Below are positions 12,602 through 44,508 of a stretch of DNA of 64,000 nt, piece by piece. Position numbers and translations under genes: made by a program. This DNA is from an uncultured Solirubrobacteraceae bacterium. Lineage in GTDB: Bacteria > Actinomycetota > Thermoleophilia > Solirubrobacterales > Solirubrobacteraceae. Numbering within the stretch: the first letter of the stretch is position 1; each line of letters starts with the position of its first letter. The stretch spans positions 1-64,000 of the forward strand of contig CAZPQW010000006.1 in the NCBI GenBank assembly GCA_964588985.1, in the 5' to 3' direction. The notes below the pieces were generated by a model. That model was given only the letters and a program-made list of their open reading frames with translations, was not told the origin of the DNA and searched no databases.

Positions 12602-13654
12602 ATGGATCGCTCGTTCGCAGGACGCTCGCCGATCGCTCTGCCGCTGCCACGACTGGGAGGCGTGGTCGGCTCGATCGGAGGGCTCGGGAGGCTCGTGGGG
12701 AGCCGCAGGCGCGCGCGCATCGCGCTGGTTGCGGCGCTGGCGGCGACTCCGCTGCTGGTCGGCGGCTGGCTGTGGCTGCGCCAGTCGCCGTTCGTGTCGG
12801 TCCAACAGGTCCAGATAACCGGCGTTCACGGCCCCGACGCGGGAGCGATCGACGCGGCGCTGGCGGGCGCGGCACGCCACATGAGCACGCTCGCGGTGAA
12901 TGCCGGCGCGCTGCGCCAGGCGACGTCTCAGTTCGTGGTGGTGCGCGAAGTGAAGGCCGTGCCGCGCTTCCCGCACGGCCTGCGCATCCACGTGGTCGAG
13001 CAGTTGCCGGTGGCGGCGCTCGCGGTCGACGGGGCGCGCACCGCGATCGCGGCCGACGGGGTGGTGCTCGGTCCGGCGTTGCTTTCGAGCTCGCTGCCGA
13101 CGGTCACCGGCTTCCACGACGCGCTCGCTGGTCAGCGCGTGCAGGGTCCGAACGTGCTCGCCGCGGTCACGGTCCTCGGCGCTGCCCCCTCGCCGCTGCG
13201 GCGCGTGGTCGACCACGTCTACACCGGCCCCGACGGCCTCACGGTGGCGTTCCGCAGTGGCCTGCTGGCGTACTTCGGCGACGCGACGCTGCCGCACGCG
13301 AAGTGGCTGTCGCTCGCCCGCGTGCTAGTCGACCCGAGCGCTCAGGGCGCCTCCTATGTGGACTTGCGCGTGCCGGGCAGGCCGGCGGCAGGGTTCCCCG
13401 CCGGCGTCGCTCCACCCGACGCCGCGACGGCCAACTCCACGATCGAAACGCCCGTCACGGGCGAATCGACGAACGCCTCCGAAGCGACGATCGCCTCGCT
13501 CGCCGCGAGCCTCGCTGACAGCGCGGGAGGCAGCGCGGCGTCCTCGACGAGCGCCACGGAAACCCCCGCCACGCCTACGGAAAGCTCGACCGAAGCTCCA
13601 TCCGCTTCAACCACCGAAACGCCCCAGAGCACCGAAACGCCGGGAGGAGGATGA
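12602..13654 (+). CDS. ftsQ: Cell division protein FtsQ/DivIB with S/T-rich tail
   Basis: TM then POTRA-like region (FVSVQQVQITG, FPHGLRIHVVEQLPVA), YVDLRVP; upstream of ftsZ. Confidence 0.85.
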   Translation: MDRSFAGRSPIALPLPRLGGVVGSIGGLGRLVGSRRRARIALVAALAATPLLVGGWLWLRQSPFVSVQQVQITGVHGPDAGAIDAALAGAARHMSTLAVNAGALRQATSQFVVVREVKAVPRFPHGLRIHVVEQLPVAALAVDGARTAIAADGVVLGPALLSSSLPTVTGFHDALAGQRVQGPNVLAAVTVLGAAPSPLRRVVDHVYTGPDGLTVAFRSGLLAYFGDATLPHAKWLSLARVLVDPSAQGASYVDLRVPGRPAAGFPAGVAPPDAATANSTIETPVTGESTNASEATIASLAASLADSAGGSAASSTSATETPATPTESSTEAPSASTTETPQSTETPGGG

Positions 13655-13821: not shown

Positions 13822-13846
13822 AACCCTAAATTCCTAGTGAAGGCTT
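13822..13846 (+). promoter_or_regulatory. FtsR-like box 2 upstream of ftsZ
   Basis: AACCCTAAATTCCTAGTGAAGGCTT, a 25-bp imperfect inverted repeat. Confidence 0.5.
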
Positions 13847-13860
13847 CGGACAGAACCATC

Positions 13861-14946
13861 ATGGAGAGCAGCGGAAGCTACCTGGCAGTGATCAAGGTCG
13901 TCGGAGTCGGCGGCGGTGGAACGAACGCGGTCAGTCGCATGGTCGACGCGGGTTTGCACGGCGTGGAGTTCATCGCCGCGAACACCGACGCCCAGGCGCT
14001 CGCGATGTGCGACGCCGACATCAAGCTGAACATCGGCCACGACTCGACCAAGGGTCTCGGCGCCGGCGCGAACCCCGACGTGGGTCTCGCCTCGGCGTCG
14101 GAGTCGCGCGACGACATCAAGGAGGCGCTGAAGGGCGCCGACATGGTGTTCGTGACCGCGGGCGAGGGCGGCGGCACCGGTACGGGAGCCGCCCCCGTGA
14201 TCGCGGAGATCGCGAAGAACGAGATCGGCGCGCTGACGGTGGGCGTGGTGACGCGCCCGTTCGACTTCGAGGGCTCGCAGCGCGGTCGCCAGGCGACCGA
14301 AGGCATCGAGCGCCTGCGCGAGGTCGTCGACACCCTGATCGTGATCCCGAACGAGAAGCTGCTCGCGGTGGTGGAGCGCCGCACCACCATGCTTGACGCG
14401 TTCCGCGAGGCCGACGACGTGCTGCGTCAGGGCGTGCAGGGCATCACCGACCTGATCACCATCCCGGGCCTGATCAACCTCGACTTCGCCGACGTCCGCA
14501 CGATCATGCAGGACGCCGGCTCGGCGCTGATGGGCATCGGCACCGCCAGCGGCGAGAGCCGTTGCGGCGACGCAGCGCGCGCCGCGATCTCCTCGCCGCT
14601 GCTCGAGGAGTCCGTGGACGGCGCGACGGGGATCCTCCTGAACATCACCGGCGGGAAAGACCTGGGCCTGTTCGAGGTCAACGACGCCGCGGAGATCATC
14701 CAGAACGCGGCCGACCCGAACGCGAACATCATCTTCGGCGCCGTGATCGACGAGAGCATGGCCGAGGACGTGCGCGTCACCGTCATCGGCACCGGCTTCG
14801 ACCACCGTCCGGGCCGCGGCGGCCGGCGTGAGTCCAGGGCGGCGCGTCCTGGGGCTCCTGATCGCGGACCCCAGCTCGGCGACCGGCAGCGCTCGACGCT
14901 CGAGATCTCGGACGACGATATAGACGTCCCGCCGTTCCTGCGTTAG
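13861..14946 (+). CDS. ftsZ: Cell division GTPase FtsZ (ORF open from GTG 13837)
   Basis: [30 protein letters not shown]-terminal DIDVPPFLR. Confidence 0.98.
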
Positions 14947-14987
14947 GAGCGAGCATCCGGCGCGCCAAACCGGCGCAGACAATAGAA

Positions 14988-15260
14988 CGAGCTGTTTCTC
15001 TTCCGCAGATGTCTTTGACGGGCATAAACGTCTGTATTCTCAGGCACTTCGCCTCCGTGGACTTTTGTAGATCGCACGTCTAGTCCACTCACACCTTGCA
15101 GCGCGGTCGACGTGGCTGCTAGACCTTGGACGCCCCGATGGTTGGGGTTGGGATGCACACGCAGGGATAACGGCGTCGGGCGACCCCCGGCGTCGTAGAG
15201 GCAGTACCAATGGCCCTAGCCAAACGGCTAGGGCACAAACCACAGGAGCATGACGATGCG
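14988..15260 (+). repeat. Diverged non-coding direct repeat, copy 1 (candidate promoter plus structured RNA)
   Basis: Colinear blocks CGAGCTGTTTC, GGACTTTTGTAGATC, CTCACACC, CCCGATGG, GGGATG and CACAGGAGCATGRCGATGCG are shared with 22925-23199. Confidence 0.8.
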
Positions 15261-15451
15261 TGAAGTGCTTCCAAGCGGAGGTCTCATGTCGGCTGGGCGT
15301 GGCTCAATAGTCGCCCGAAATTTGTTCCTCGAACGATTACCGGGGAATCAGAAACGGGGGTTGTGTCTTTGCAACGGCCCCAGCCAAAATGTCACCATGC
15401 AGCTGACAGCACGCGTATTGCCATGCTCCTCAAGACAAGGAGCGAGAATCA

Positions 15452-16018
15452 ATGTCACGTACTATCCGTCTACTGGGGATGACCCTGGTCGCCGTCCTGG
15501 CGTTCAGCGGTGTAGCATCGGCGCACAGCTTCGTCGCAGAAAAAGCCGGTGCTGTAACAAGGGTCAAAAACACAACGCAGGTCTTCAAAACCGGGAGCGG
15601 TCCTGCAGTGGAATGCACCGCAGACGCCGTCAGCAACGCTAACGCTGTGGCAGGGAAACAGTTAACACTGGCGGCTGACGTCAGCTACTCAAGCTGTACC
15701 GTCACGGAGATCTTGAAATTCGAAGCCACTGTGACTACCGCTAAATACACGTTCAACGCCGACGGGACTGCAAACCTAAACAACACGATCGTCATCAAAG
15801 TTCCGATCGCGGGCTGCAACATAACGGTGAAACCGCAGAACACTCTCAAAACGCTCACGTACAAAAACACTGGCAAAAATGTCATTGTGGAACCGAATGT
15901 CTCGGGCATCGTGTCCGAAGGGAGCGGCGGTGAATGCGGTACCGGCGTCACCAACAAAGGCACCTACACTGGTACCACGGAAGTCACATCGTCAGGCAAC
16001 ACCATTTCGTGGGAATAG
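15452..16018 (+). CDS. Small secreted beta-rich protein with 4 Cys (module subunit A1, putative fibre subunit)
   Basis: AAGGAG RBS; Sec signal ending VASA; T/V/N/K/G-rich; no TM anchor. Confidence 0.85.
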   Translation: MSRTIRLLGMTLVAVLAFSGVASAHSFVAEKAGAVTRVKNTTQVFKTGSGPAVECTADAVSNANAVAGKQLTLAADVSYSSCTVTEILKFEATVTTAKYTFNADGTANLNNTIVIKVPIAGCNITVKPQNTLKTLTYKNTGKNVIVEPNVSGIVSEGSGGECGTGVTNKGTYTGTTEVTSSGNTISWE

Positions 16019-16064
16019 CTGCAACGTAGGTAGGCGACGCCAAAGCTAGTCGCCGGTGTTTTAC

Positions 16065-16095
16065 TGCCGAGCGGGCCGCCTGAGCCCGCTCGGCA
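16065..16095 (+). terminator. 12-bp GC hairpin after A1 (partial terminator or mRNA stabiliser)
   Basis: TGCCGAGCGGGC-CGCCTGA-GCCCGCTCGGCA; no U-tract. Confidence 0.6.
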
Positions 16096-16125
16096 TCATC
16101 GCGGAGAACCGACGTTGGGGAGGGA

Positions 16126-18327
16126 ATGGAGCGTATGTTCAAAGTGCATCAACCGGCAACGCGCCGACTAACAGTCGCTTTGGGGCTGGTGGGCGTTATC
16201 GGTGTGATGTCCTATCTGCCCTCGTCGGCGCTGGCTGGGACGTGCGGTAACGAAGGTCTGCGAGCCCAGCAGGGCTCGTCGTTTCTTCCCGAATGCCGTG
16301 CGTATGAGCTCGTGAGCCCTCCCGGCGCAACGGCCTATGTGGCGCCGGGCGGAAGCGTGGATGGAGCCAGGGCCGCGGAAGGGCTCGCGGCGAGCGTTGG
16401 CGAGATCTCGTGGTTCTCCTACTACCCCCCGGCAGGTCTCAGCAATCCGAGCATGCATCTTCTATCGACGCGGACCGCGAGCGGCTGGGGAACGCGAGAC
16501 GTGATTCCTTCCCAGTCGACGTCTTCGGGAGCGTTCATCGAATGCGGCGGGTACACGTATTTCTCCGGAGATCTTGCGACGGAAATCCTCTCGGACGGGC
16601 AGGAACAGTGCCCTCACAACGATCCGCCCTTGACGGAAGACGAACCAGAAGGCTTCGAGAACCTCTTCCTTCGCGACGTTGACTCGGAATCGTACAGTCT
16701 TGTGAACCTGACGCCCGCGAATGAAGCGCCGGCTGACGCCCACCTTCAGGATGCGTCAACAGACTTCTCGCACATCGTATTCTCAGAGAACGCGAAGCTG
16801 ACCCCCTCCGCACCCGCAGGTGACGTCCTCTACGAGTGGGTGGGTGGGAGCGTGCACCTGGTAAGCATTCTTCCGGACGGGACCCCCGTGTCGGGTAGGT
16901 TGGTCGCGGAAGCGTCGCCTTCCAGTTCCTTCCTTGTTGGATTTGCGCCTCTCTTGCACAGCGTGTCGGCCGACGGAAGCCGCGTGATCTTCGAATCGGG
17001 GGGCGACCTGTACGAGCGAGAGAACGCGGAAATGGAACAGAGCCAGCTGAGCCCCGAAGGAGACTGTCTCGAAGCCGACATGGCCTGCACGGTCCAGGTC
17101 GACGCATCTGCTACCGGAGGCCTCGGCGGCGGCGGTCAATTCATAGCCGCGACGGCGCAGGGCACGGACGTCTTCTTCACGGATGGAGGGGTCAAGAAGC
17201 TGACGAGCGACACCGTCCCGAGTAGCGGGCAGAACCTCTACGAGTTCGACCTCGAAACCGGGCAGCTCAGCGATCTGACGCCGTTCGCATCCGCGCACGT
17301 GCTGGGACTCGCCGGACTCGGCGAAGAAGGGAGTGCGTGGCATCTGTACATCGCCGCGGAAGGCGCTTTCGGCGAAGTGAACGCCGAAGGTCACGAACCG
17401 CAGGAAGGCGCACCGAACCTGTATGAGCTCTCCCGGGAATCGTCCGTCGCGTTCCTCGCAACCCTGGCGCCCGGGGACTGGAAAGACTGGCAGGGCGAAA
17501 CACGCGAAGCGGCCGCGGCTCCCAACGGACGCTTCCTGGTGTTCGGCTCCGTCGCGGAATTGACCGGCTACGACAACCGCGATGCGGCAACCGCTCAGCC
17601 GGATTCCGAGCTGTTCGCATACGACGCGGTCGCTCAGCGCCTCGAATGCGTCTCCTGCGGTCCCGCGAATGTGCGGCCGATCGGCGCGACCGGCATCAGT
17701 GCGGTGGAGAGGTCGTCGGTCAACGGATGGGGACCCGGGTATCTCCGTCGCAATGTATTCAACGACGGCAGCGTCGTATTCGATACGCCGAACCCGCTCG
17801 TGGCGGGCGATGCAGACGGCCGCCGCGACGTCTATCTCTACAGCGGCGGCCAGGCGCATCTCATATCCAGCGGTACGAGCGCCGAAAACTCCTACTACTA
17901 CGAAGCGAGCGGATTGAACCCGGTGACCGGGGGCGAAGCCGAAGATGTGTTCTTCGCCACGAGCCAGCATCTGGCCGGAGCGGACGCAGGCAATGGGCCT
18001 GCACTGTATGACGCGCGGGTCGAAGGAGGTCTCTCCGAACCGGCGACGCAGGCGCCGGCATGCTCGGATGAAAGCTGCCGAGGGGGATCCCCAAGCGAGC
18101 CGTCTGCGAGCGCTCCCGCAAGCGCGACTTTTATGGGGCTCGGCAACATCACGCCGACGGTTGAAAAGCCCACGACGAGCCGTAAAAAGCCCAGGAGCTG
18201 CAGGAAGGGCACTGTGCGGCGGCACGGCAAGTGCGTGAAGAAGAAACGGGGACATGCGAAAGGGCGAGCCGGAAAGAGCCGAAAGGCGAGAAAGACGACG
18301 GCGACGGGAAGGGTCTCTCATGTATAG
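16126..18327 (+). CDS. Secreted beta-propeller (TolB/WD40-like) protein with Cys/Lys/Arg tail (B1)
   Basis: Signal peptide, LPECRAYELVSP, repeats ASTDFSHIVF / VSADGSRVIF / APNGRFLVF / FNDGSVVF, tail CRKGTVRRHGKCVKKK. Confidence 0.85.
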   Translation: MERMFKVHQPATRRLTVALGLVGVIGVMSYLPSSALAGTCGNEGLRAQQGSSFLPECRAYELVSPPGATAYVAPGGSVDGARAAEGLAASVGEISWFSYYPPAGLSNPSMHLLSTRTASGWGTRDVIPSQSTSSGAFIECGGYTYFSGDLATEILSDGQEQCPHNDPPLTEDEPEGFENLFLRDVDSESYSLVNLTPANEAPADAHLQDASTDFSHIVFSENAKLTPSAPAGDVLYEWVGGSVHLVSILPDGTPVSGRLVAEASPSSSFLVGFAPLLHSVSADGSRVIFESGGDLYERENAEMEQSQLSPEGDCLEADMACTVQVDASATGGLGGGGQFIAATAQGTDVFFTDGGVKKLTSDTVPSSGQNLYEFDLETGQLSDLTPFASAHVLGLAGLGEEGSAWHLYIAAEGAFGEVNAEGHEPQEGAPNLYELSRESSVAFLATLAPGDWKDWQGETREAAAAPNGRFLVFGSVAELTGYDNRDAATAQPDSELFAYDAVAQRLECVSCGPANVRPIGATGISAVERSSVNGWGPGYLRRNVFNDGSVVFDTPNPLVAGDADGRRDVYLYSGGQAHLISSGTSAENSYYYEASGLNPVTGGEAEDVFFATSQHLAGADAGNGPALYDARVEGGLSEPATQAPACSDESCRGGSPSEPSASAPASATFMGLGNITPTVEKPTTSRKKPRSCRKGTVRRHGKCVKKKRGHAKGRAGKSRKARKTTATGRVSHV

Positions 18328-21300
18328 GAAGGCAGCCGTTGCCCTGATCGTCCTGTTGATGATGGGAGCGCTGGCCGCATCGGCTTCCGCGACCCTGACG
18401 CACCCTCTCGTCTCCAGCTTCACGGGGAGCGAAACTCCAGAAGGGTCGATGTTTCCACTTGAGCTCGCGGTGGACAACTCCTCGAGTGCATCGGCCGGCC
18501 ATGTGTACGTCGGATCGTATGTACCTCGAGTCGTCAACGAGTTCTCGGCTGCAGGCAGCTACCTGTGCCAGATTACGGGTGCGGGCTCTGCGACGACGTC
18601 GCTGAGCGAGTGTGACAGCAGCGGCAGCGGTGTGCCGGAAGGCAGCTTCGGCTCCCCCGAAATTCAACTTGCGGTGACGGTGGATGGGAGCGGCGATTTG
18701 TATGTGGGAAACAGGGAACACCACGCGGTTGACGTGTTCAGTCCCTCGGGGACGTACATATCTGAAATTGCGCTGCCGAAAGAAGGGCAGCCTTCCGCGC
18801 TCGCGGTGGACGCCGCCGGCGACATACTCATAGCCGACTCCAGTAACGGCATCGTGTACAAGTTCGTCCCGGGCGTCGAAAAGCTCGAGATCTTCGCGAC
18901 GGAAGGGCCATCTCACCCACTGGGCTCGGTACAGGGGCTGGCTGGCGATACAGACCCGTCCAGCGCCTCCTACGGCGATGTGTACATGGTGGAAAACGGT
19001 GGCGAAGGCGTGGCCGTGTACGACGCGTCGGGAGAGTACGTCTCATCCATCACCGCTACGTCGAGCGGTCCGTTCGGGGAATCGCCCTACGCGTTGGCGG
19101 TCGATCCGGCCAGTGGCGAGCTGTACGTGGTGATGAGCGGCGGTGTCGACGAGTTTGCGCCTGGCGGCGCATTCCTGTCGCGTATCGAACTGCCGAATCA
19201 AGCGTCGCCGTACGCCGTCGCTGTCAACGGCTCCAGTCACGACGTGTACGTGTCGGCGCTGTTCGCGCGCACGGTGTACGTGCTTGGTCCCGCGGTTGTG
19301 GTGCCCACCGTCACGCCGGCGGCACCGGTGAGCGTGCTGCCCACGAGCGTCACTCTGCACGGTGCCGTGAATCCGGCCGGTGGCGGGGAAGTGACGGAAT
19401 GCGCATTCGAATGGGGTGAAACCCCGTCCTACGGCGAAACGGCCGCGTGCTCTCCGTCGCCGGGATACACGAGCACGACCGAAGTCGACAGCGCGGCGAT
19501 CACAGGTCTCACGCCTGGCACCGCGTATCACTTCAGGATGTCGGCGACGAACGCGAACGGAACCGGATACAGCGCTGACGGGACATTCGAAACGAGCGGC
19601 GCACCGACCCTCGAAGGCGAGACGACGACCGTCGTAGGGCAGACCGATGCCACGGTGCAGGCGGCGCTCGACCCGCACGGTCTGGCGACGACCTACCAGG
19701 TCGAATACGGGTTGTGCGAAGGCACGTGTCCGGCAACCTATGAAGCGACGGTGCCGGTGTCCGGAGCGAGCGCGGGCTCGGGCTTCGCCGCGGCCACGGT
19801 GAGCCAGGAACTCACGGGGCTGCAGCGAAACGCCGAATACCACTACAGGTTCGTCGCGACCAACTCGCAGGGCACGACCGAAGCGTCCGATCAGACCTTC
19901 AGAACAGCCGCGGGCGCCACGGTGGAAAACCGGTCCGCGACGGCCGGCCCTCACGGTGCTGAAATCGTTGGGAGCATCGATCCGGCCGGCGAAGCCGTGA
20001 GCTGTCGTCTGCAGTACGTGAGCGAAGCGGAATTCAAAGCCTCGCAATACGCGCACGCGCAGAGCTTGCCGTGCACGCCCGGCGAACTTGCCGCAAACAC
20101 GGGGGCCCGGACCGTCCACGTGAAGGTGGTGGGGCTCGCCATCGACTCGGTGTACGACTACCGCTTCCTCGTCACGGGCGCATCCGGCGAAGCGACGGGG
20201 CCGGAAGGCTCGGTGGCGACGTTCGGCATCGACGCGTTCGCCTTTGAAATGCAGGATGGCGCTGGAAGCCCGTACACGGAAGCGGGTGGGCACCCGGACA
20301 GCATGGTCACCAACATCGTCCTCGATCAGACCGACGAAGGCGGCCAGTTCACGCCGAGCGGCAACGTCAAGGACGTGCGCGTCGAACTGCCGGCGGGGAT
20401 CGTCGGGAACCCCTCGGCGACGGCGACGTGCACGAGACGCGAATCGGAAGCGAAGGAATGCAGCGGCGCGGCTCAGATCGGGACGCTGATAGTCCAGGCG
20501 GCGACCGAGGGAGAACTCAGGGCGCCGCTATTCAATCTGGCGCCGCCGAAGGGCGTGGCGGCGGAGCTCGGGGCGCGGTTCAACAACTTCGCCAACGCGT
20601 ACATCGAAGCGAGGGTGCGTACCGGCGGCGACTACGGGATCGACGCGGAAAGCCTGAACATCACGAATCTGGCCGGCGTTCAACAGGTCACCGTCAGGGT
20701 CTGGGGCGTGCCGAGTGCAAGAGACCACGACGGAGAACGAGCCTGTCCGGGCCCGGAACACAGCTATGAAGTTCCGTGCGCCACACCGGAACGCGGGCCG
20801 GCGAAGCCGTTCCTGACCGCGCCCGGCTACTGCCCGGGCACGGCCCTGCAGGCGACCGTGTTCGCCGACGCCTATCAGCAGCCGGGCGAATACGTGACGG
20901 GTCACGCCGAAGCGCCCGCGATGGAAGGCTGCGAAAAGCTGCGCTTCTCCCCGAGCGTCTCGATCGCCCCGAAAACCGGCAGTGCGGACTCTCCGACCGG
21001 GCTCGACGTGGGGCTGCACGTGCCGCAGGAAGAAGGCGTCAACGGCTTGGCGGAGGCAAACGTACGAAACGTGAGCGTCACATTGCCCGCGGGCCAGAGT
21101 GTCAATCCGGCGGCGGCCGGCGGCCTGGCGAGCTGCTCGGAAACAGAGATCGAACTGCACGGCCCTCAGCCGGCAGGGTGCCCTGAAGCGTCGAAGATCG
21201 GGTCGGTGGAACTGGAAACCCCGCTCTTCCCGCACCGTGTCTTCAGGGGCGGCGTGTACGTGGCGACGCAGACCGAAAACCCGTTCGGGTCGCTGTTGGC

Positions 21301-22894
21301 GATCTACGTGGCGATCCACGAACCGGAAACGGGTGTGGTGGTCAAGCTCGCCGGGCACGTCGAACTCGGAGAACCGCTCGTGAGCAACGGCCTGCTGCCC
21401 GGGCAGATCAGGACGACCTTCGAAAACAATCCGCAGCTCCCGTTCGAAGATCTGCGGCTCAGCTTCTTCGGCGGGCCGCGCGCGGCTCTGGTGACTCCGC
21501 CGACGTGCGGGTCGTATACGAGCAGCGCCTCGCTGACGCCCTGGTCGAGCAGCGTGCCCACCGAAAAGAGCTCGACGTTTCAGATCACGAGCGGACCCGG
21601 CGGATCGGCGTGCGCCGCGCCTGGGTTCGCCCCGTCGTTCACCGCTGGAACGCCCAACAACCAGGCCGGAGGCTACTCGCCGTTCAGCGTGACGATCTCC
21701 CGCCAGGATGGCGAAGATACGCTGGGGCGCGTGAGCGTCAAGACTCCGCCGGGGCTGTTGGGGATGCTGAGGAGCGTCGTCCGCTGCCCCGAACGGCAGG
21801 CCGGCAAAGGCGAATGCGGCCCGGAAAGCGAAATCGGCGGAGCGACCGTGGCGGTCGGCGCGGGAGCGGATCCGTACTGGGTGAAGGGCGGCAAGGTCTA
21901 CCTCACCGATGCATATGGCGGCGGTCCGTTCGGCCTGTCGATCGTGGTGCCCACGACAGCCGGTCCGTTCACGCTCGCTGGAAATGGCGGGCCTGGAAAG
22001 GAGGTCGTGCGCGCGGCGATCGAGGTTGACCCGACCACGGCGCAGATAACGGTCGTGAGTGATCAGCTACCGAGCATCTTGGAGGGCGTTCCGCTGCAGA
22101 TCAGGACGGTGAACGTCACGATCGACCGGCCGAACTTCATGTTCAACCCCACTAACTGCAGCAAACTGCAGGTCAACGGCGGCCTCGTGAGCAGCACCGG
22201 CACGACCGCGTCGGTCTCCTCGTCGTTCACGGCCGCAAACTGCTCGCGCCTTCCGTTCAAGCCGAGGTTCTCGGCGTCCACGCAGGGCAAGGCGAGCAAA
22301 GCGAGCGGGGCGTCCCTGCACGTCAAAGTGACCTCGGGGGCCGGACAGGCGAACATCGCGAAAGTCAAGGTCGACCTGCCGATCCAGCTGCCCTCGAGGC
22401 TCTCGACGCTTCAGAAAGCGTGCGTGGACGCCGTCTTCAAAGCGAACCCGGCGTCATGTCCGGCAGCCTCGGCGGTGGGCAGGGCGACGGCGGTAACGCC
22501 GGTGCTCGCGCACCCGCTGACTGGCCCGGCGTACCTGGTGTCCCACGCCGGGGCGGCGTTCCCGGACCTGGAGATCGTCCTGCAGGGCGAAGGGATCACG
22601 CTGATCCTCGACGGCAACACGAAGATCAAGAACGGGGTCACGTCGAGCATCTTCAAGGCGGTGCCGGATGCGCCGATCTCGAGCTTCGACATGGTGTTGC
22701 CGGAGGGCCCGCACTCGGTGTTGGCGACCAACCTGCCCGCAAGGTCGAAGTACAACCTGTGCGGACGGACTCTGAACATGCCGACCGTGATCACGGGCCA
22801 AAACGGGGCGGTCGTCAAACAGAACACCAAGATCCTCGCCACCGGCTGCCCTACCAAGCACAAGAAGGCCAAGGCGGGGCGCGCAAAGAGCTGA
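18320..22894 (+). CDS. Large secreted protein: NHL propeller, 3 FN3-like domains and four-fold Cys-repeat domain (C1)
   Basis: Signal MYRKAAVALIVLLMMGALAASASA; LAVD..G..YV NHL repeats; GLTPGTAYHFR, GLQRNAEYHYR and GLAIDSVYDYR FN3 signatures; start overlaps the end of B1. Confidence 0.88.
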   Translation: MYRKAAVALIVLLMMGALAASASATLTHPLVSSFTGSETPEGSMFPLELAVDNSSSASAGHVYVGSYVPRVVNEFSAAGSYLCQITGAGSATTSLSECDSSGSGVPEGSFGSPEIQLAVTVDGSGDLYVGNREHHAVDVFSPSGTYISEIALPKEGQPSALAVDAAGDILIADSSNGIVYKFVPGVEKLEIFATEGPSHPLGSVQGLAGDTDPSSASYGDVYMVENGGEGVAVYDASGEYVSSITATSSGPFGESPYALAVDPASGELYVVMSGGVDEFAPGGAFLSRIELPNQASPYAVAVNGSSHDVYVSALFARTVYVLGPAVVVPTVTPAAPVSVLPTSVTLHGAVNPAGGGEVTECAFEWGETPSYGETAACSPSPGYTSTTEVDSAAITGLTPGTAYHFRMSATNANGTGYSADGTFETSGAPTLEGETTTVVGQTDATVQAALDPHGLATTYQVEYGLCEGTCPATYEATVPVSGASAGSGFAAATVSQELTGLQRNAEYHYRFVATNSQGTTEASDQTFRTAAGATVENRSATAGPHGAEIVGSIDPAGEAVSCRLQYVSEAEFKASQYAHAQSLPCTPGELAANTGARTVHVKVVGLAIDSVYDYRFLVTGASGEATGPEGSVATFGIDAFAFEMQDGAGSPYTEAGGHPDSMVTNIVLDQTDEGGQFTPSGNVKDVRVELPAGIVGNPSATATCTRRESEAKECSGAAQIGTLIVQAATEGELRAPLFNLAPPKGVAAELGARFNNFANAYIEARVRTGGDYGIDAESLNITNLAGVQQVTVRVWGVPSARDHDGERACPGPEHSYEVPCATPERGPAKPFLTAPGYCPGTALQATVFADAYQQPGEYVTGHAEAPAMEGCEKLRFSPSVSIAPKTGSADSPTGLDVGLHVPQEEGVNGLAEANVRNVSVTLPAGQSVNPAAAGGLASCSETEIELHGPQPAGCPEASKIGSVELETPLFPHRVFRGGVYVATQTENPFGSLLAIYVAIHEPETGVVVKLAGHVELGEPLVSNGLLPGQIRTTFENNPQLPFEDLRLSFFGGPRAALVTPPTCGSYTSSASLTPWSSSVPTEKSSTFQITSGPGGSACAAPGFAPSFTAGTPNNQAGGYSPFSVTISRQDGEDTLGRVSVKTPPGLLGMLRSVVRCPERQAGKGECGPESEIGGATVAVGAGADPYWVKGGKVYLTDAYGGGPFGLSIVVPTTAGPFTLAGNGGPGKEVVRAAIEVDPTTAQITVVSDQLPSILEGVPLQIRTVNVTIDRPNFMFNPTNCSKLQVNGGLVSSTGTTASVSSSFTAANCSRLPFKPRFSASTQGKASKASGASLHVKVTSGAGQANIAKVKVDLPIQLPSRLSTLQKACVDAVFKANPASCPAASAVGRATAVTPVLAHPLTGPAYLVSHAGAAFPDLEIVLQGEGITLILDGNTKIKNGVTSSIFKAVPDAPISSFDMVLPEGPHSVLATNLPARSKYNLCGRTLNMPTVITGQNGAVVKQNTKILATGCPTKHKKAKAGRAKS

Positions 22895-22924
22895 CTCGGC
22901 TCGCACGAGATCGCGCGTATTCGG

Positions 22925-23199
22925 CGAGCTGTTTCCGTCACATGCGTGTTTTTTACTGGGCGAACTTACCCAGAAATACGGGATTTTGACTGTCAGGACT
23001 TTTGTAGATCCTGGATGTAAATTGCTCACACCCTTGTGGAGGCAGACGTTCGGCTGTTAGAACTTTGCTCGTCCCGATGGATGGACAAATGGGATGTCAC
23101 AGCGAAGGGACGAACGTCGCTGGCGAGCCAACGGCGTTGGTTAGGACCACTGCTCCTGTCGTGCGGCTGGGGCGGTGATCACAGGAGCATGGCGATGCG
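22925..23199 (+). repeat. Diverged non-coding direct repeat, copy 2
   Basis: Same blocks as 14988-15260 at near-identical spacing (71/71 nt and 182/184 nt between anchors). Confidence 0.8.
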
Positions 23200-23300
23200 C
23201 GGCAGGCCTTCGACGGGTTAGATTCGCTATGTCTGAACGTCGGCGGTACACGCGCGTCGTCATGCTCCGTGAATCGGGCGCTACGCTAGCCTGAGGCGCA

Positions 23301-24380
23301 ATGCCGCCCGCACCCTTGACCCTCCGCCGCACCGCCCTGTTCGACCGCCACGTCGAGGCCGGCGCGAAGATGGTCGACTTCGCCGGCTGGGAGATGCCGG
23401 TCCAATACCAGGGCGTGCGCGAGGAGCACATGGCGGTGCGCGAAGCGTGCGGGATCTTCGACGTGTCGCACATGGGCGAGATCGAGACGAGCGGGCCGCA
23501 GGCGCTCGAGCTGCTGCAGCGGCTGCTCTCCAACGACGTCGCGCAGATCCCGATCGACGGGGCGCAGTACAGCGTGCTCTGCCGCGAGGACGGCGGCGTG
23601 CTCGACGACCTCTTCACCTACCGACTCGACGTCGACCGCTACCTGACGGTCACGAACGCCTCCAACCACGCCAAGGACCTCGCATGGTTCCAGGCTCACG
23701 CCGAGGGTCTGCCCGACGTGCGGGTCGAGGACCGCATCGACGACTGGGCGATGCTCGCCGTGCAGGGGCATCTCGCGCGCGAGATCGTGCAGGCGATCTC
23801 CGACCACCCGCTGCCCGAGCGCATGAGCGCCGAGACCCGCAACCTGCTCGGGAGCGACGTGCTCGTGTGCGGCACGGGCTACACCGGCGAGGACGGCGTC
23901 GAGCTGCTCTGCCCGACCGAGAACGCCGTCGAGCTGTGGGACGAGCTCGTCAAGCGCGGCGCCACGCCCGCCGGGCTCGGCGCGCGCGACACGCTGCGCC
24001 TTGAGGTCTGCTTCCACCTCTACGGCAACGACCTCAGCGAAGCCCGAGGCCCGATCGAAGCTGGGCTCGGCTGGTGCTGCAAGGAGGACACGCGCTTCAT
24101 CGGCTCCGAGGCCGTGCGCGCCGTCCGGGCGAGCGGGCCCGCGGAGAAGCTCGTCGCGTTCGCGCTGGACGGCCCCGGGATCGCCCGCCAGGGCAACCCG
24201 ATCGTTGGCGGGGGAGAGGTCACGAGCGGCACGCTCTCGCCGTGCCTCGGCGTGGGCATCGGCATGGCCTACGTGCCCGTCGCGAACGCCGCCGTGGGCA
24301 CCCGTCTCGAGATAGACGTTCGTGGCAAGATGCGCGGCGCCGTTGTCAAGGACAAGCCGCTCTACAGAAAGGGCTCCTGA
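23301..24380 (+). CDS. gcvT: Glycine cleavage aminomethyltransferase T
   Basis: FAGWEMPVQY, FDVSHMG, TGYTGEDGVE, GLGARDTLRLE. Confidence 0.96.
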   Translation: MPPAPLTLRRTALFDRHVEAGAKMVDFAGWEMPVQYQGVREEHMAVREACGIFDVSHMGEIETSGPQALELLQRLLSNDVAQIPIDGAQYSVLCREDGGVLDDLFTYRLDVDRYLTVTNASNHAKDLAWFQAHAEGLPDVRVEDRIDDWAMLAVQGHLAREIVQAISDHPLPERMSAETRNLLGSDVLVCGTGYTGEDGVELLCPTENAVELWDELVKRGATPAGLGARDTLRLEVCFHLYGNDLSEARGPIEAGLGWCCKEDTRFIGSEAVRAVRASGPAEKLVAFALDGPGIARQGNPIVGGGEVTSGTLSPCLGVGIGMAYVPVANAAVGTRLEIDVRGKMRGAVVKDKPLYRKGS

Positions 24381-32210: not shown

Positions 32211-35200
32211 GTGCGATACGCAAAGCGTCCGACTCTGTGGTGTGTCGTGGCGTGTGTAGGTGCTTGTGTCGTGCTTGCGTTTGCGGCTGCTCCAGCATTT
32301 GCTGGCCGCAGCAAGCTCTCCCCGATTACCGAAGCCAACAGCAGGCCGTTCGGTGGACTGAGCTCGCTAGGGGTCGCAGGTGTCGCGGTCGATGACTCCG
32401 ATAATCTATGGATCGGGGAAACGGGAGGGCAGGTGATTGACGAGGTCAGTTCCTCCGGTGCCTTCGTTGGCGAAAGTACCGGCTCGTGGAGCGGCCTGTA
32501 CCCACAGACCGTTGCTTTCTCCGACGCCTCAAAACATCTTTATTTTACAGATTTCTTCAGCGGCGATATTTGGGGCTTGGAACCGAGCGGAGCTTATGCC
32601 GGCATCGATCTGACGGGTCCGTGGAGCGCGGGGTACCTCACTGTCGGGATCGCAGCTGATAACTCCAGCGGTCCGACCGGCGGAGATCTCTACCTCGCTG
32701 GCGAAGGCAGTTCGGTATATCGTATCGACGGTGCGGGTGGGGAAGTGCCCTTTTCCGCTAGCGAGCCATACATCGGCGGCAACCGGCTCACCGGCTTTGC
32801 GCCTGGCGAATCCTTCTACGCGCCGGTGGCTATCGCGGTCGCTTCTACCGGCGACTTCTATGTTGTTGATGCGGGTAGGGACGCAGTTTATGAGTTCAGT
32901 TCGTCCGGTGAATTCCTGCGGTCTTTCGCCGAAGCGGAAAATGGGCCCTTCGGCTCGGTCTCAGCTATCGCGGTCGACCCAACTAACGGTCATGTCCTCG
33001 TCGCAGACCAGGCTAACGGCTTTATAGACGAGTTTGACTCGACTGGAACCTATCTGGACAACCTCGAAGAAGTGAGCGGGCCCACGAGCCTTGCCGTTGA
33101 CTCCTCAGGCAAGCTATATGTCACAGAAAGCGCCGGAAATCAGATTGGAGTGTATGGGCCTTACAGTGCGCCGTTGCACCTACCCAAGATCGAAGGTCGC
33201 GCGGTCTCAAGCGTCGCCTCGACGTCCGCAACACTCAATGCAAGTGTCAAGCCAAAGGGTGGGGGTGAAGTCAGTGAATGTCGCTTTGAATACGGCAGTA
33301 GCGAAAGCTATGGCCAGAGTGTGCCGTGCGCTCCCGCCACATTTTCAAGCACGAGTGCCGTGTCAGCACAGTTGAGGGGGCTGCTGCCCGACAGGACGTA
33401 TCACTATCGTCTACGCGTCGTAGACACGTCGACCGGGTTTGCCGGATTGTCTGGGCTCGACCATGTCTTCGCAACAAACCCTGCCGCAGCTGGTTCGCCG
33501 ACTGCTGGTTGCTCCAATCCGGCCCGTACGGGTCCGTCTGTACGGCTTCCCGATTGCCGTGGCTATGAGCTTCTGACGCCGGCGGATAAGGGTGACGCTG
33601 AAGATATGTTCGGAGACACTGGCGAACAGTCGGTAAATGGTGGCAGTTATGAGGTTGGTTACCCGGATGAAAATCCGCTTGCGGAAGGTGGAAAGTTTTT
33701 TCTTAGCACGACTGCCGCTTTTGGTCCCGGCGCGACTGGCGGGCAGAATGGGTACGTGTTTTCACGTGATGCCGGTGGTTGGCAGCAGGATTCGCTTGCC
33801 GCTCCGATTCCGGGGGTTCAGAGCGTTGATGTTGAATCGCTCTTTAGTCCGAACTTTTCCCATGTCGCGAGCCTTCCGAAGCTCGGGTCGAATGCGAATG
33901 CGGGAGCAAAACAGTCTATGGGCCTTGTCGGCTTGCTCGGGGGCCCGTACGACACCATTTTTGAAGGCAACGAAGGGACTTTCACGGGTGCTTCGACAGA
34001 TTTCACGCGTGTCTTTTTCCAATCGGCAGATCATAGCTTCGCGGCTCCCGCGGGAGAACAGCTTGTGGGCAGTAAAGCTGTGTACGAATATTCTGGTGGG
34101 CGTTATACGCTTATCAACGTTGATGACGAAGGTAAGCTACTAAATGAATGTGGAGCTGTATCGCCAGCGGAAAACACGCAGATAGTCGGGGTCTACAGTC
34201 ATGCGGTGTCGGCGGACGGATCGCGCGTGTTCTTTTTGAGTCCCGACCCAACGGATCTTAGCTGCTTCCACGAAAGAGAAGAAGGGTTTACTGGTTCTCC
34301 TCCGCAGTTGTTTGTTCGTATGGGCCGGCGTACGGTTGAGATGTCGGCGCCAGTAGCAGGGGTGGTTGATCCAGCGGGACCGCAACCCGTGGCGTTTGCT
34401 GGTGCGGCTGCAGATGGTTCGCGTGTGTTCTTTATTACTCGCGAGGAGTTGACGGCCGACGATGCGGGTAATCATGCGCCTGAGTTGTATGAATACGATT
34501 TTGCAACGGAAGGATTGACGCGTATTTCACGCGGTGCTTCGAAGAGTGGCGTCGGTAATGTGAGTTGGGTTGTCCCAGCGGCGAGTGGGGCAGCGATCTA
34601 CTATACGACGGCTAATGGGCACCTGTATCGGTATGACACTCATACGGGGACTACGACGTACATCACGACGGTAAGCGGCGGCGACTGGAATGAAACGAAT
34701 GCGAGTGGCTATAAGACGCTAAATGTCCACCAGCCGTTGAATGTGCGTTCGTCGTGGGAGGCGACTCCGGATGGCCGGTTCTTGTTGTTTATTGCGAGGG
34801 AGAACGTGACGGGTTATGACTCCGCCGGACACAGTGAGGTTTATAGGTTTGACGCTGTGACGGGTGGCTTGTTGTGCATATCGTGTAATCCAGACGGGTC
34901 TGCGCCGTCTGCGGATGCGCAGTTTGATCGTACGACGCGCAATCGTGAGGTGCGGGGCATCTCGGACGACGGGGCTTTTGTATTTTTTGATACTCCTGAA
35001 TCCTTGGTGCCCGCTGATACGAATGGACGGTTGGATGTGTATGAGTGGCACGAAGGCGGCTTGTCGTTGATTAGTTCAGGTCAAGATGCAAGTAACTCAT
35101 ATTTCCTTGGTACTGATCCGTCGGGTGGTGATGTGTTTTTTGGTACTCATGCGCGCTTGGCTCCGCAGGATGTCGATGGCGCGGGAGATCTCTACGACGC

Positions 35201-35468
35201 GCGTATTAATGGTGGTTTTCCGGTGGTGCAGGGCGCGATGGGCTGTGAAGGCGATGGCTGCCGGAACCCTTCGCCAACGTCGTCTGGAGCGTCTGGTGAA
35301 GCAGGCCCGCTGTCGTTCTCGTTCACAGGCCCAGGGAATTGGGTTGCCCCAAAACCCCCTGCGGGGACTCAATGCAAAAAAGGCGTCAAGAAGCACGGTA
35401 AGTGCGTGAGAGTTCGGAAGAAGCGGGTGCGGGCTAGGAAAGCCGGCCACAACGGGAGGGCACGTTGA
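32211..35468 (+). CDS. Secreted NHL + FN3 + beta-propeller protein with Cys/Lys/Arg tail (B2; ORF open from 32178)
   Basis: GGAGG before GTG 32211; NHL repeats, GLLPDRTYHYR, LPDCRGYELLTP, VSADGSRVFF, tail CKKGVKKHGKCVR. Confidence 0.87.
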   Translation: MRYAKRPTLWCVVACVGACVVLAFAAAPAFAGRSKLSPITEANSRPFGGLSSLGVAGVAVDDSDNLWIGETGGQVIDEVSSSGAFVGESTGSWSGLYPQTVAFSDASKHLYFTDFFSGDIWGLEPSGAYAGIDLTGPWSAGYLTVGIAADNSSGPTGGDLYLAGEGSSVYRIDGAGGEVPFSASEPYIGGNRLTGFAPGESFYAPVAIAVASTGDFYVVDAGRDAVYEFSSSGEFLRSFAEAENGPFGSVSAIAVDPTNGHVLVADQANGFIDEFDSTGTYLDNLEEVSGPTSLAVDSSGKLYVTESAGNQIGVYGPYSAPLHLPKIEGRAVSSVASTSATLNASVKPKGGGEVSECRFEYGSSESYGQSVPCAPATFSSTSAVSAQLRGLLPDRTYHYRLRVVDTSTGFAGLSGLDHVFATNPAAAGSPTAGCSNPARTGPSVRLPDCRGYELLTPADKGDAEDMFGDTGEQSVNGGSYEVGYPDENPLAEGGKFFLSTTAAFGPGATGGQNGYVFSRDAGGWQQDSLAAPIPGVQSVDVESLFSPNFSHVASLPKLGSNANAGAKQSMGLVGLLGGPYDTIFEGNEGTFTGASTDFTRVFFQSADHSFAAPAGEQLVGSKAVYEYSGGRYTLINVDDEGKLLNECGAVSPAENTQIVGVYSHAVSADGSRVFFLSPDPTDLSCFHEREEGFTGSPPQLFVRMGRRTVEMSAPVAGVVDPAGPQPVAFAGAAADGSRVFFITREELTADDAGNHAPELYEYDFATEGLTRISRGASKSGVGNVSWVVPAASGAAIYYTTANGHLYRYDTHTGTTTYITTVSGGDWNETNASGYKTLNVHQPLNVRSSWEATPDGRFLLFIARENVTGYDSAGHSEVYRFDAVTGGLLCISCNPDGSAPSADAQFDRTTRNREVRGISDDGAFVFFDTPESLVPADTNGRLDVYEWHEGGLSLISSGQDASNSYFLGTDPSGGDVFFGTHARLAPQDVDGAGDLYDARINGGFPVVQGAMGCEGDGCRNPSPTSSGASGEAGPLSFSFTGPGNWVAPKPPAGTQCKKGVKKHGKCVRVRKKRVRARKAGHNGRAR

Positions 35469-38400: not shown

Positions 38401-38764
38401 GCTGCACGGCGAAACAAACATAAAATCGGGGGTCACCAGCTCGACCTTCCGCACGGTGCCCGACCAGCCCGTCAGCAGCTTCGAACTGACGCTGCCGCAG
38501 GGCAAGGACTCAGCTCTGGCAGCCTTCCTGCCAGCCAAGGACAAAGGCGACTTCTGCGGCCAGAAGCTCACGGCCCCGACCAACATCATCGGGCAGAACG
38601 GCCTCGAAATCCGTCAGAGCACACCGATCACGGTCACCGGATGCTCCGGTAAGGCGCAGAAGCTCGCGGCGGCGCTCAAAGCGTGCCGGAAGAAGGCGCG
38701 GGCCAAGCGTGGGTCATGCGCCAGGGCAGCCCGCAGGAGGTATGGCTCCTCGAAGAAGGGTTAG
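35468..38764 (+). CDS. Large secreted protein: DUF11-like Ig domain and four-fold Cys-repeat domain (C2)
   Basis: TGATG overlap with B2; YRVVVINTG..VTITDALPAG; long colinear similarity to C1 (LPSR.STLQKAC, LTGPAY.VSH); tail KLAAALKACRKK. Confidence 0.88.
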   Translation: MRVPARLMLAVAVAVAGFGVFCVPGALAVQAGAQWTVTAVSLPTNFPPNALTSGANEYRVVVINTGDTPSSGTVTITDALPAGVSLDPLGASGTEQISGAPLSCSGLECTYSEPVQPGDALQVTIPVDTGAAGVVENLVTVSGGAPEVSQTTPTVIGVPARFGVAPGSAHTTLSSLQAGAHADLTSTLAFSTINDEGILAGDPKDTTFNLPAGFAGDVVDVPACAVSYFAAHNECPIDTQVGSVTLFVEAGNNSGRISTSPVYNLAASPGAVAKLGFFAGRTLDIQGNVFVRPGANGLEHLETTFENIDESLAELDSVVLTIWGVPNDPAHNAVRGLNCLAAGNCFQVNGGIPDGLLTPFLTNPTSCSGAPLHSEFKVDSWQHPSEGPPPTLMQFGTLTGCEQLTMTPSLIVEPSNTSAYSPTGLKVGLEVPQTFENPYGLATSHLKDAVITLPEGMTLNPSAAAGLGSCTEAQVEAETAASLQDEGCPNASKIGTVHVKSPAISEEATGSVYVATPFANRFDSLLALYVVAKIPDRGIVVRLAGKVEPNPLTGQLTTTFDENPQLPFSDFTLSFNQGAGAPLVTPATCGEYTTSGEMSPWSEPSAFSLVSSVFSITSGIGGAPCPAGAAAFAPQLVAGTLNNVAGSYSPFDLHITRGDGEQEITGISAQLPPGLSANLTGVPFCPEADIALARTKTGAQEEVEPSCPAASQIGHSLAGAGVGSQLVYAPGKLYMAGPFEGAPFSIVSITSAKVGPYDLGTVVLHLPLQINPTTAIVTVGAGSADQIPHIIKGIVIHLRDIRVYVDRSNFTLNPTSCNPMSLTASVIGSGQSFTSSADDGAVSVSNHYQASDCANLAFKPSFKLSIPARASKVAGMGLTTKLTFPAGTQGTQANVRYVKVVLPRALPSRFSTLQKACLAGVFDANPAACPAGSVVGHARAVTPILPVPLTGPAYFVSHGGAKFPELVLVLQGYGVTIELHGETNIKSGVTSSTFRTVPDQPVSSFELTLPQGKDSALAAFLPAKDKGDFCGQKLTAPTNIIGQNGLEIRQSTPITVTGCSGKAQKLAAALKACRKKARAKRGSCARAARRRYGSSKKG

Positions 38765-44441: not shown

Positions 44442-44508
44442 GCGTTATCGCCGTCTCTCATTCCTTTACCGCGGCGCGATTGTCTGCTACAACGCACTGA
44501 GGACGACC

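Follow-up and report, generated by a model that had tools for sequence, protein, structure and literature searches.

Introduction

Translational attenuators of the ermC and cat type place a short upstream frame with its own ribosome-binding site (RBS) ahead of a gene whose Shine-Dalgarno (SD) sequence is held in a hairpin, and the position of the ribosome decides which strands pair. The leader of Bacillus hag is repressed by CsrA, with FliW as the antagonist. Here, we describe a repeated element in a 64,000-nt stretch of DNA (positions 1 to 64,000 of contig CAZPQW010000006.1, assembly GCA_964588985.1; referred to as the window) from an uncultured Solirubrobacteraceae bacterium. Two diverged copies of the element, copy 1 and copy 2, bracket an island that runs from the ftsZ stop to the gcvT start (14947-23300, 8354 nt), as a sequence-only reading of the window had pointed out. 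To our knowledge, almost no regulatory RNA is known from the Solirubrobacteraceae, and a look at the literature for riboswitches in Solirubrobacterales found none.

The two repeats are, very probably, copies of a promoter-plus-leader module that belongs to a family of secreted-protein genes, copy 2 being a relic. The module, about 0.5 kb long, appears to consist of a likely promoter, a long folded leader and a small upstream frame, in a lineage of the Solirubrobacteraceae type. Copy 1 (14988-15451) looks complete and would serve the cassette at 15452-22894; copy 2 (22925 to about 23270) looks like the leader relic of an earlier cassette at the same ftsZ-gcvT site. The leader is an undescribed family of a known kind, the translational leader. 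That the whole reading holds, i.e., a module family whose leaders act as a three-strand translational switch with an upstream open reading frame (uORF), is a view that we favor with less assurance.

Like the ermC and cat attenuators, the leader has an upstream frame with an RBS, and the strand that pairs with the SD in the hairpin has an alternative partner upstream; here too, where the ribosome stands on the leader would settle which of the two pairs. Unlike them, it is far longer (about 335 nt, counted from the inferred start), its uORF has about 60-70 codons instead of 8-20, and the alternative partner is the uORF's own RBS and AUG. There is also no drug-resistance gene here and no conserved arrest peptide beyond R-L-(P/S).

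The portion of PMC10732093 that deals with the Streptomyces adpA leader describes a conserved UUA in a translated uORF, whose stop overlaps the main start (AUGA). As in that account, UUA stands in the uORF frame here in 14 of 18 leaders, in a high-GC actinobacterium, and AUGA or UAAUG overlaps occur (checked in the sequence for C3_68, L054, L090 and L051, deduced from the frame for others). The likeness goes further, in that the rare UUA is also found at codons 2-3 or 5-6 of paralogs without a leader. However, only 5-6 nt separate the UUA described there from the main AUG downstream of it; the UUA here, at the tip of a folded domain, is about 115-119 nt away on the 5' side. The host here is a Solirubrobacteraceae-type metagenome-assembled genome (MAG), and the putative targets are secreted proteins without assigned function.

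Results

The repeats belong to a family of modules that precede secreted-protein genes

The sequence-only reading had listed ordered blocks shared by the two repeats. When both stretches were read and aligned, all of these were found where it had placed them, with the spacings it gave. The principal ones are as follows.

14988-14998 (copy 1) and 22925-22935 (copy 2): block CGAGCTGTTTC, read in the sequence
15059-15073 and 22996-23010: block GGACTTTTGTAGATC, 71 nt after CGAGCTGTTTC in both copies
15241-15260 and 23180-23199: block CACAGGAGCATGRCGATGCG, 182 nt (copy 1) and 184 nt (copy 2) after GGACTTTTGTAGATC

BLASTN against the whole assembly (3.41 Mb, 48 contigs, 68% G+C; C1, C3, C6, etc. are contig labels) aligned the copies at 68.2% identity over 211 nt with an E value of 3.5e-16, so their likeness is far beyond chance. 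Besides the partner copy, neither repeat had a match below E 0.1 in that search. A 36-nt core (15225-15260 and 23164-23199) was alike at 81% in a repeat search.

An initial hidden Markov model (HMM) of the two copies gave weak matches beside other cassettes, and iterative nhmmer then recovered eight copies in the source genome, with a ninth piece found in addition:

C6 14959-15302, plus strand: window copy 1
C6 22899-23242, plus strand: window copy 2
C3 46351-46694: solo 5' half
C3 68144-68490: module copy
C3 104122-104469: module copy
C5 42687-42310, minus strand: module copy
C22 24000-23735, minus strand: solo piece
C24 15602-15343, minus strand: module copy
C3 44356-44485: 3' fragment of a leader, additional to the eight

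Five of the source-genome copies are complete, and each reaches the start codon of a signal-peptide first gene, about 200 nt past the earlier limit. In full copies this extra sequence carries the conserved blocks GCGATTAYCG, GAAACGGGGGNTTG and CRTGCTCC-N9-AAGGAGC-N4-8-ATG. The extent first given to the repeats therefore stands for the blocks but was too short on the right: copy 1 extends to 15451 and copy 2 to about 23270. The AGGAG-N7-ATG-CG motif, noticed at the end of both repeats, is conserved across the whole family.

Outside the source genome, metagenome contigs and two related genomes yielded about 14 further copies or fragments. Of 401 genomes of the genus, 3 matched a strict pattern, the source genome included; the match in G282 was rejected, as nhmmer gave no confirmation. 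A looser pattern scan returned 99 loci (60 in metagenome contigs and 39 in species genomes), of which 10 were true homologs by nhmmer. All 10 precede the same kind of signal-peptide gene, and two of them are in MAGs titled Solirubrobacteraceae and Solirubrobacterales. Since the contig scans relied on exact patterns, diverged members of the family were missed. The sequence-only model R1 found three copies in G289 (two added) and five matches in G417, adding three full copies and a partial one. When copy 2 was compared by BLAST with 40 relatives, all matches were short, at chance level and within coding regions. The set used for comparison comprised 19 leaders and copy 2, with MAFFT L-INS-i alignments (L-numbers are locus labels); some final counts were read by eye from sequence or alignment output.

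The proposal of an unannotated cis-regulatory leader or promoter tied to a gene family, with further copies to be looked for, is thus supported: every full copy abuts the start codon of a signal-peptide first gene. The other option raised, a free-standing small RNA, is disfavored because no terminator-like site was found and because the element continues for about 200 nt into the RBS of the gene.

It is very improbable that the repeats are ends of miniature inverted-repeat transposable elements or insertion sequences, or decayed coding sequence, without function. Copy 2 is clearly decayed, and high-GC DNA yields long spurious frames, such as the 130-aa (amino acid) frame at 15250-15642. Yet the blocks are conserved in three genomes and about eight metagenome contigs, in one orientation and with the same gene family downstream; there are no inverted terminal repeats, and the substitutions show no codon periodicity.

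Two side observations concern the copies themselves. On C3, the 3' half (44356-44485) and the 5' half (46351-46694) of a leader lie 1.9 kb apart in reversed order, with a fragment between them (45337-46290) that resembles the C-terminal part of the large cassette protein; the region 44356-46694 appears to be a scrambled cassette remnant. In G417, tandem units occupy C6 278883-299220 (L152, L149 and L146), with a partial fourth leader at 288087-288171, and the neighbors L149 and L152 differ by a uORF frameshift. That a leader precedes every cassette was considered and rejected, most paralogs of the 188-aa first gene being without one.

A predicted SD hairpin and an alternative upstream helix

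The elements of the leader, with the corresponding hairpin of copy 2, are listed below (all on the plus strand; MFE, minimum free energy structure).

15212-15234: hairpin P0 of copy 1, GGCCCTAGCC-AAAC-GGCTAGGGC (also written GGCCCUAGCC-AAAC-GGCUAGGGC), followed by a CA-rich linker; in the MFE
23152-23173: hairpin P0 of copy 2, GCTCCTGTC-GTGC-GGCTGGGGC; in the MFE
15245-15266: 5' strand of helix P1, copy 1, SD-like GGAGCAUG plus CGAUGCG(UG), also the uORF RBS and AUG (15256-15258); pairs with 15410-15429 in the MFE
15256-15454: uORF region, copy 1; from AUG 15256 the frame continues without a stop beyond the main start, and the listed open reading frame (ORF) runs from the in-frame ATG at 15250 to 15642
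15334-15342: invariant CGAUUACCG, copy 1; CGA-UUA forms uORF codons 27-28, in an apical hairpin loop of the MFE
15351-15363: conserved GAAACGGGGGUUG block, copy 1, from the alignments
15410-15429: 3' strand of P1, copy 1 (CACGCGU...CAUGCUCC), the last 8 nt being the anti-SD; from MFE and duplex
15437-15454: main RBS AAGGAGC (15437-15443) and start codon (15452-15454) of the 188-aa gene

A conserved anti-SD stands before the gene SD in all 19 leaders, as CRUGCUCC-N8-11-(A)AGGAGC-N4-12-AUG (L150 has GCUCU). CRUGCUCC is complementary to the gene SD nine bases downstream, and the resulting GCUCC-N9-GGAGC hairpin is the sole helix kept by RNAalifold on the whole-leader alignment. The anti-SD is also the complement of GGAGCAUG further upstream, and the bases immediately 5' of the anti-SD (..CGCAU..CAUGCUCC) pair with CGAUGCG, which adjoins GGAGCAUG. 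An alternative upstream partner, or anti-anti-SD, is thereby present: P1 was found in the MFE of all 13 domains tested as well as in the tool fold of copy 1, and was seen as the cross-copy inverted repeats I5 and I17.

The P1 duplexes had a mean z of -1.9 when the 3' strand was shuffled with its last 8 nt kept, with values of -2 or lower in 10 of 19 (-2.54 for copy 1). In 8 of 13 rows, the cognate 5' and 3' halves of the domain took one of the top two ranks among 13. In L094 the inner part of P1 reads AGUGAUACG/CGUGUCACU, against CGAUGCG/CGCAUCG in others; read by eye, it appears to have changed on both strands, i.e., to covary. The energy difference between folds forced into P1 and folds forced into the SD hairpin ranged from -8.0 to +4.0 kcal/mol, and for 10 of 18 leaders it did not exceed 2. 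Left unconstrained, 10 of 18 leaders had the P1 state as their MFE, and 6 had the SD-hairpin state.

P0 recurs, with unrelated stem sequences, in most of the 19 sequences; it is found 8-12 nt upstream of GGAGC, and a CA-rich linker comes after it. The P0 windows had a mean z of -1.8. For the whole leader, the fold z was -4.1 for copy 1 and -4.8 for copy 2. The interior of the domain varies by subfamily, from rod-like in some copies to multi-hairpin in others. Two hairpins had earlier appeared to be retained in both repeats. The second, P0, is indeed in the MFE of both, but the first (ACGC...GCGT) is outside the copy 1 MFE, where an 11-bp hairpin, ACGGCGUCGGG/CCCGGCGUCGU, replaces it.

We propose that in the off state the anti-SD CRUGCUCC would close a hairpin on the gene SD AAGGAGC. 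Alternatively, it would pair about 190 nt upstream with GGAGCAUG..CGAUGCG, forming P1, and the SD would be freed. Loading of ribosomes on the uORF and formation of P1 would be mutually exclusive, because the upstream strand of P1 doubles as the uORF RBS and AUG. Ribosomes reading the uORF would pass through the anti-SD/SD hairpin, and in many copies they would stop at or next to the main AUG.

A putative uORF with an in-frame CGA-UUA pair

The RBS and start of the uORF are conserved in position. Each of the 18 full leaders has GGAGC-N2-8-(A/G)UG at a distance of 173-211 nt from the main AUG downstream, with the CA-rich linker preceding the GGAGC; in the five full source-genome copies the uORF AUG is 196-207 nt before the first-gene start. 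CGA UUA YCN, encoding Arg-Leu-(Pro/Ser), lies in the uORF frame in 15 of the 18 leaders (UUA itself in 14). CGATTA is retained in 12 of 13 sequences, plus L055, L149, L152 and L155. The uORF stop overlaps the main AUG (AUGA or UAAUG) or is within 20 nt of it in 11 of 18 leaders, as read by eye.

TTA is the rarest Leu codon of this genome: 96 of 669,905 codons (0.14 per 1000) in 1356 long ORFs with high G+C at third codon positions. The cognate tRNA-Leu(taa) gene is present at C1 258520-258606. ARAGORN also reported a short, 73-nt second tRNA-Leu(taa) at C5 104171-104243 and a 97-nt tRNA-like gene with a four-base anticodon (ggag) at C27 31243-31339.

CGATTA has 197 occurrences genome-wide. Within -260 to +60 of 16 first-gene starts of the family it was found 9 times against 0.15 expected, an excess of about 60-fold. 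Five of the 9 are at -115 to -119, inside leaders. The other four are inside main ORFs and all in frame, three at codons 2-3 (ATG CGA TTA) and one at codons 5-6, and these codon-positioned pairs belong to paralogs without a leader. That CGA-UUA turns up in two unlike settings speaks for a role of the pair as codons. Alternatively, the excess could come from AT-rich gene starts or from shared ancestry.

The in-frame, invariant CGA-UUA may gate read-through of the uORF, UUA being the rarest Leu codon here. We put forward only tentatively that UUA decoding, a bldA-like signal of tRNA supply, gates the expression of the whole cassette family through two interchangeable designs. In the first, CGA-UUA would stand at codons 2-3 or 5-6 of the first gene itself; in the second, it would be in frame within a uORF of about 65 codons, at the tip of the folded leader. 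Ribosomes stalled or queued at UUA would cover the strand that holds the uORF RBS, and the anti-SD would stay on the gene SD. Free passage past UUA would unzip the SD hairpin and couple translation to the main AUG.

The 3' domain of the leader might instead be a ligand- or protein-sensing RNA, similar to a riboswitch, with P1 as the anti-anti-SD and CGAUUAYCG and GAAACGGGGGNUUG as the sensor core. The uORF would then be a by-product, since a strand that mimics an RBS must look like one. Such a sensor accords with the conserved blocks inside a P1-closed domain, with CGAUUAYCG in the apical loop of 13 MFE folds and with strong overall folding; the uORF shows no conservation at the amino acid level, and nucleotide invariance reaches third codon positions. 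Like the SD/anti-SD/anti-anti-SD expression platforms of riboswitches, the leader has three strands whose pairings exclude one another, and its two folds are nearly equal in energy. Unlike riboswitches, it has no conserved aptamer architecture (the interior being rod-like or multi-hairpin), no Rfam family and no known ligand. Rfam 15 gave no match in the 64-kb window at gathering thresholds. At E values up to 10, its 4227 families gave five chance-level matches only in 14800-15500 and 22800-23400 (U4atac, MicL, mir-433, MAT2A_F and HDV-F; best E 0.79), none of which overlaps the conserved blocks. Moreover, the distance from AUG to CGAUUA is divisible by three in 15 of 18 leaders, which is unexpected for a pure aptamer, and so is CGA-UUA as codons 2-3 or 5-6 of leader-less paralogs. 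We consider a sensor RNA a possible, though rather improbable, explanation.

Several results weigh against the translational switch with a uORF. The uORF is cut short in 3 of 18 leaders (C24, L076 and L149 stop after 12, 38 and 43 codons), and its end varies, the frame of copy 1 passing the main AUG out of frame. Substitutions in the uORF at codon positions 1, 2 and 3 numbered 23, 26 and 20 in four close pairs; there is no third-position excess and therefore no conserved peptide sequence, just frame and nucleotides. By a rough count, length changes were in frame 8 times and out of frame 3 times. The in-frame spacing from AUG to CGAUUA could derive in part from shared ancestry, and conservation of CGAUUAYCG could act at the RNA level, given its predicted hairpin-loop position in the MFE.

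As for the helices, in 5 of 13 rows the cognate halves had no pairing advantage over foreign ones, the register of the inner part of P1 differs between subfamilies, and the P1 z was near 0 in L149, L152 and L155. On an alignment fitted with a covariance model, 60% of the P0 cells were paired, 10 of 500 shuffles reached as high a value, and a slide by +1 was equal. RNAalifold found neither P0 nor P1 on MAFFT alignments, giving on the whole-leader and P0 alignments the SD hairpin or a 4-bp GCAU/AUGC stem only, and P1 could not be placed in one register there. Formal covariation for the leader helices is weak.

The family is also narrow: model R1 had no match in five near relatives (0 of 5), and of the 3 strict-pattern genomes among 401, one was without nhmmer confirmation. 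Finally, a canonical sigma-70 scan of the module found nothing, since position 6 of the -10-like hexamer is not T.

The uORF as a conserved small protein was considered separately and rejected: it shows no third-position bias, the frames diverge after RL(P/S), and three copies are truncated.

GGA sites and CsrA

A passage of PMC4347634 quotes the CsrA consensus from systematic evolution of ligands by exponential enrichment, RUACARGGAUGU, with ACA and GGA invariant; FliW-CsrA antagonism is stated there as well. The leaders might accordingly be CsrA-controlled mRNAs, in which dimers bind two conserved ACA(R)GGAGC sites, one upstream and one at the SD, and perhaps also a purine-rich AAGGRA site close to the 5' end, blocking the RBS. 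The sequence-only reading had called CsrA binding speculative, and we regard such control as unlikely. Two CsrA homologs are encoded, one at C1 253513-253668 and one at C5 91712-91870, where FliW and a flagellin-family gene are its neighbors. A putative main site, ACAAGGAGC, occurs in copy 1 and several other copies, with ACAGGAGC as the putative upstream site, and both conserved GGA sites resemble the ACA-R-GGA core. Like CsrA-repressed leaders, then, these have GGA sites, one overlapping the SD, in a genome with FliW-CsrA and a second CsrA. However, GGA is present in any strong SD, and only about half of the copies have ACA ahead of the SD (read by eye). Unlike in CsrA-repressed leaders, the sites are about 200 nt apart, and the GGA of the SD is base-paired in a stem, not looped.

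The source genome, an actinobacterial-type MAG, thus has two CsrA loci (L159 and L160): one CsrA is part of a flagellin-family/FliW/CsrA cluster, and the other, a form of 105 aa, stands alone. Another coding gene directly precedes the gene next to fliW.

Copy 2 and the history of the ftsZ-gcvT site

Two features of the right-hand end of the island are given here (both on the plus strand).

23184-23268: P1 of copy 2 (GGAGCAUGGCGAUGCGCG/CGCGCGUCGUCAUGCUCC), still present although the interior has shrunk; duplex energy -40.9 kcal/mol, z -2.54
23275-23303: ancestral gcvT-proximal sequence (CGCTAGCCTGAGGCGCAATG); two relatives also carry CGCTAGCCTG(R)GG upstream of gcvT

Compared with the L062 leader, copy 2 has about 95 nt deleted, from CGAUUAYCG through GAAACGGGG. 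Its small frame ends as had been claimed, with 10 codons, MAMRGRPSTG, and a stop at 23219-23221. Everything after the anti-SD is absent, the SD, start and cassette of its own being gone; as its own SD and start are missing, the relic is placed as joined about 30 nt before the gcvT start at 23301. It retains the promoter-like motif, P0 and a very strong P1. A scan found no terminator-like site after copy 2, which could therefore still send transcripts into gcvT, and may do so. In many bacteria a glycine riboswitch is to be expected ahead of gcvT; the region 22800-23400 gave no match to the Rfam glycine model.

In relatives, ftsZ adjoins gcvT in 18 of 23 gcvT loci (L119-L141). Read by eye, the gap between them is short in about ten (about 12-105 nt, below about 110) and 190-270 nt in three; it is about 800-1200 nt, with unrelated small ORFs, in four relatives, and 8354 nt here. 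A leader before gcvT in the relatives was rejected, there being no HMM match in the 23 loci. Adjacency of the two genes without a leader homolog argues that the island of 8354 nt is an insertion, at a recurrent insertion site.

On contigs L040 and L062, the end of ftsZ (96% aa identity over 69 aa) is followed by an intact leader and then by the first gene of a cassette. This leader is 73% identical to copy 2 over 351 nt and appears to be its intact counterpart. The ftsZ-gcvT site therefore carries different cassettes in the source genome and in L040/L062. Contigs from other samples span the junctions with 0-1 differences: X6 covers 14778-18413 and 22584-23908, X10 spans both junctions (14704-15087 and 22844-23330), and X8 the right one only (22697-23136). 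Hence, the arrangement is not an assembly artefact.

The repeats had also been suggested to be substrates for cassette exchange by recombination. Cassettes have turned over at this exact site, copy 2 being the scar of an earlier one, but no copy 1-copy 2 recombinant joint was found among the joints listed for contigs of four other DNA samples, and copies only about 68% alike are a poor substrate for homologous recombination. The joint 14753->23370 was listed, with 25-nt sides; it probably comes from relatives that have ftsZ next to gcvT.

A mainly DNA-level role, as homology for unequal crossing-over or as exchange sites that shuffle cassettes, seems to us quite improbable. It would fit the three G417 copies at 278.9, 289.6 and 299.0 kb, which are tandem cassettes with a leader each at a spacing of about 10 kb, and the solo leader pieces on C3 (46351-46694, 5' half; 44356-44485, 3' half) and C22 (24000-23735), as well as the differing occupants of the ftsZ-gcvT site. 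Apart from the low likeness of the copies and the missing joint, no recombinase or transposase domain was found among the island ORFs, and no terminal inverted repeats at the ends of the island or of the repeats. The constant placement ahead of a start codon, together with the RBS logic, favors a role in expression, as in the promoter-plus-leader module.

The promoter-like upstream part

The upstream part of the module is likely a promoter with a factor site. Its elements are the following (plus strand).

14993-14998: TGTYTC box (TGTTTC) of copy 1, conserved in position; candidate transcription-factor site
15059-15073: GGACTTTTGTAGATC block of copy 1, downstream of the box and upstream of the -35; the alignment of 19 sequences shows it partly conserved (GGACTTT/CGAGCTTC)
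15096-15125: promoter-like TTGCAG-N15-TGC-TAGACC (-35 and extended -10) of copy 1, from family conservation
22925-23063: upstream part of copy 2, with TGTTTC (22930-22935), GGACTTTTGTAGATC (22996-23010) and TTGTGG-N15-TGT-TAGAAC (23034-23063)

The family shares (C)TTGY-N14/15-TGY-TAGAM, followed by GTCCC, and we infer that transcription of copy 1 would start at about 15131-15134. In 13 of the 16 sequences that match the promoter, a TGTYTC-like box, often present twice, precedes the -35-like TTG by 95-107 nt. TG[CT]TAGA[ACT] has 43 sites in the source genome, 10 of them with TTG at -35 spacing. Eight of these belong to family copies; the other two are upstream of other signal-peptide genes, at distances of 94 and 82 nt. 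Among the sites without such a TTG, many have a start codon 11-45 nt downstream, as expected for the -10 of leaderless or short-leader mRNAs.

TGCTAGAY was seen 11-45 nt before start codons at many loci (e.g., C9 71434, C16 63678, C18 10957 and C26 6674), which makes it a candidate extended -10 motif for leaderless genes of the source organism. CTAG is otherwise depleted, with TG[CT]TAGAC present 21 times against 86 expected from base composition. Similarly, CGCTAGCCTG(R)GG stands 8-12 nt before the gcvT start in the source genome and two relatives (L119 and L120), and looks like the -10 element of a leaderless or very short-leader gcvT mRNA.

Genes of the island and paralogous cassettes

The order of genes and repeats is ftsQ, ftsZ, copy 1, the 188-aa, 733-aa and about 1525-aa genes, copy 2, gcvT and gcvP.

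12602-13654: ftsQ
13837-14946: ftsZ
15452-16018, plus strand: signal-peptide protein of 188 aa, first gene of the cassette, from ORF reading
16126-18327, plus strand: secreted protein of 733 aa
ending at 22894, plus strand: secreted protein of about 1525 aa with NHL/FN3-like parts
15452-22894, plus strand: the cassette that copy 1 would serve, three secreted-protein genes, with many paralogous cassettes in the genome
23301-24380: gcvT
from 24810: gcvP

Family searches with the 188-aa, 733-aa and about 1525-aa proteins found no named family. Cassette paralogs are many in the source genome (C3, C5, C8, C19, C20, C23 and elsewhere), and the first genes of the five full copies share the signal-peptide pattern M.RI.L.GLAL.AVFAF.

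A second cassette in the window, at about 32800-38700, has paralogs of the 733-aa protein (33990-35405) and of the large protein (1546 aa, 35996-38710) and no leader copy. On C8, two first-gene paralogs about 11 kb apart (34087-34635 and 45138-45686) have equal tblastn statistics and the same printed 5' sequence of about 120 nt, which suggests a recent tandem duplication of the whole cassette. The cassette after the C24 leader appears truncated (C24 13879, minus strand), the first gene being followed by a frame starting MAVLWFVLYALLRRLL..., conceivably a transposase.

Discussion

The element would be an undescribed cis-regulatory module for a large, fast-turning-over family of secreted proteins in uncultured Solirubrobacteraceae of soil and rhizosphere. 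Its design, with three strands, is compact and lends itself to testing, since the strand that would serve as the anti-anti-SD looks like a working RBS with an AUG. The ftsZ-gcvT site indicates, furthermore, that a leftover leader can end up before a housekeeping operon (gcvT-gcvP), which is relevant to annotation and to the way in which repeats flanking an island are read. Given the link of CGA-UUA to this gene family, gating by a rare codon may not be confined to Streptomyces.

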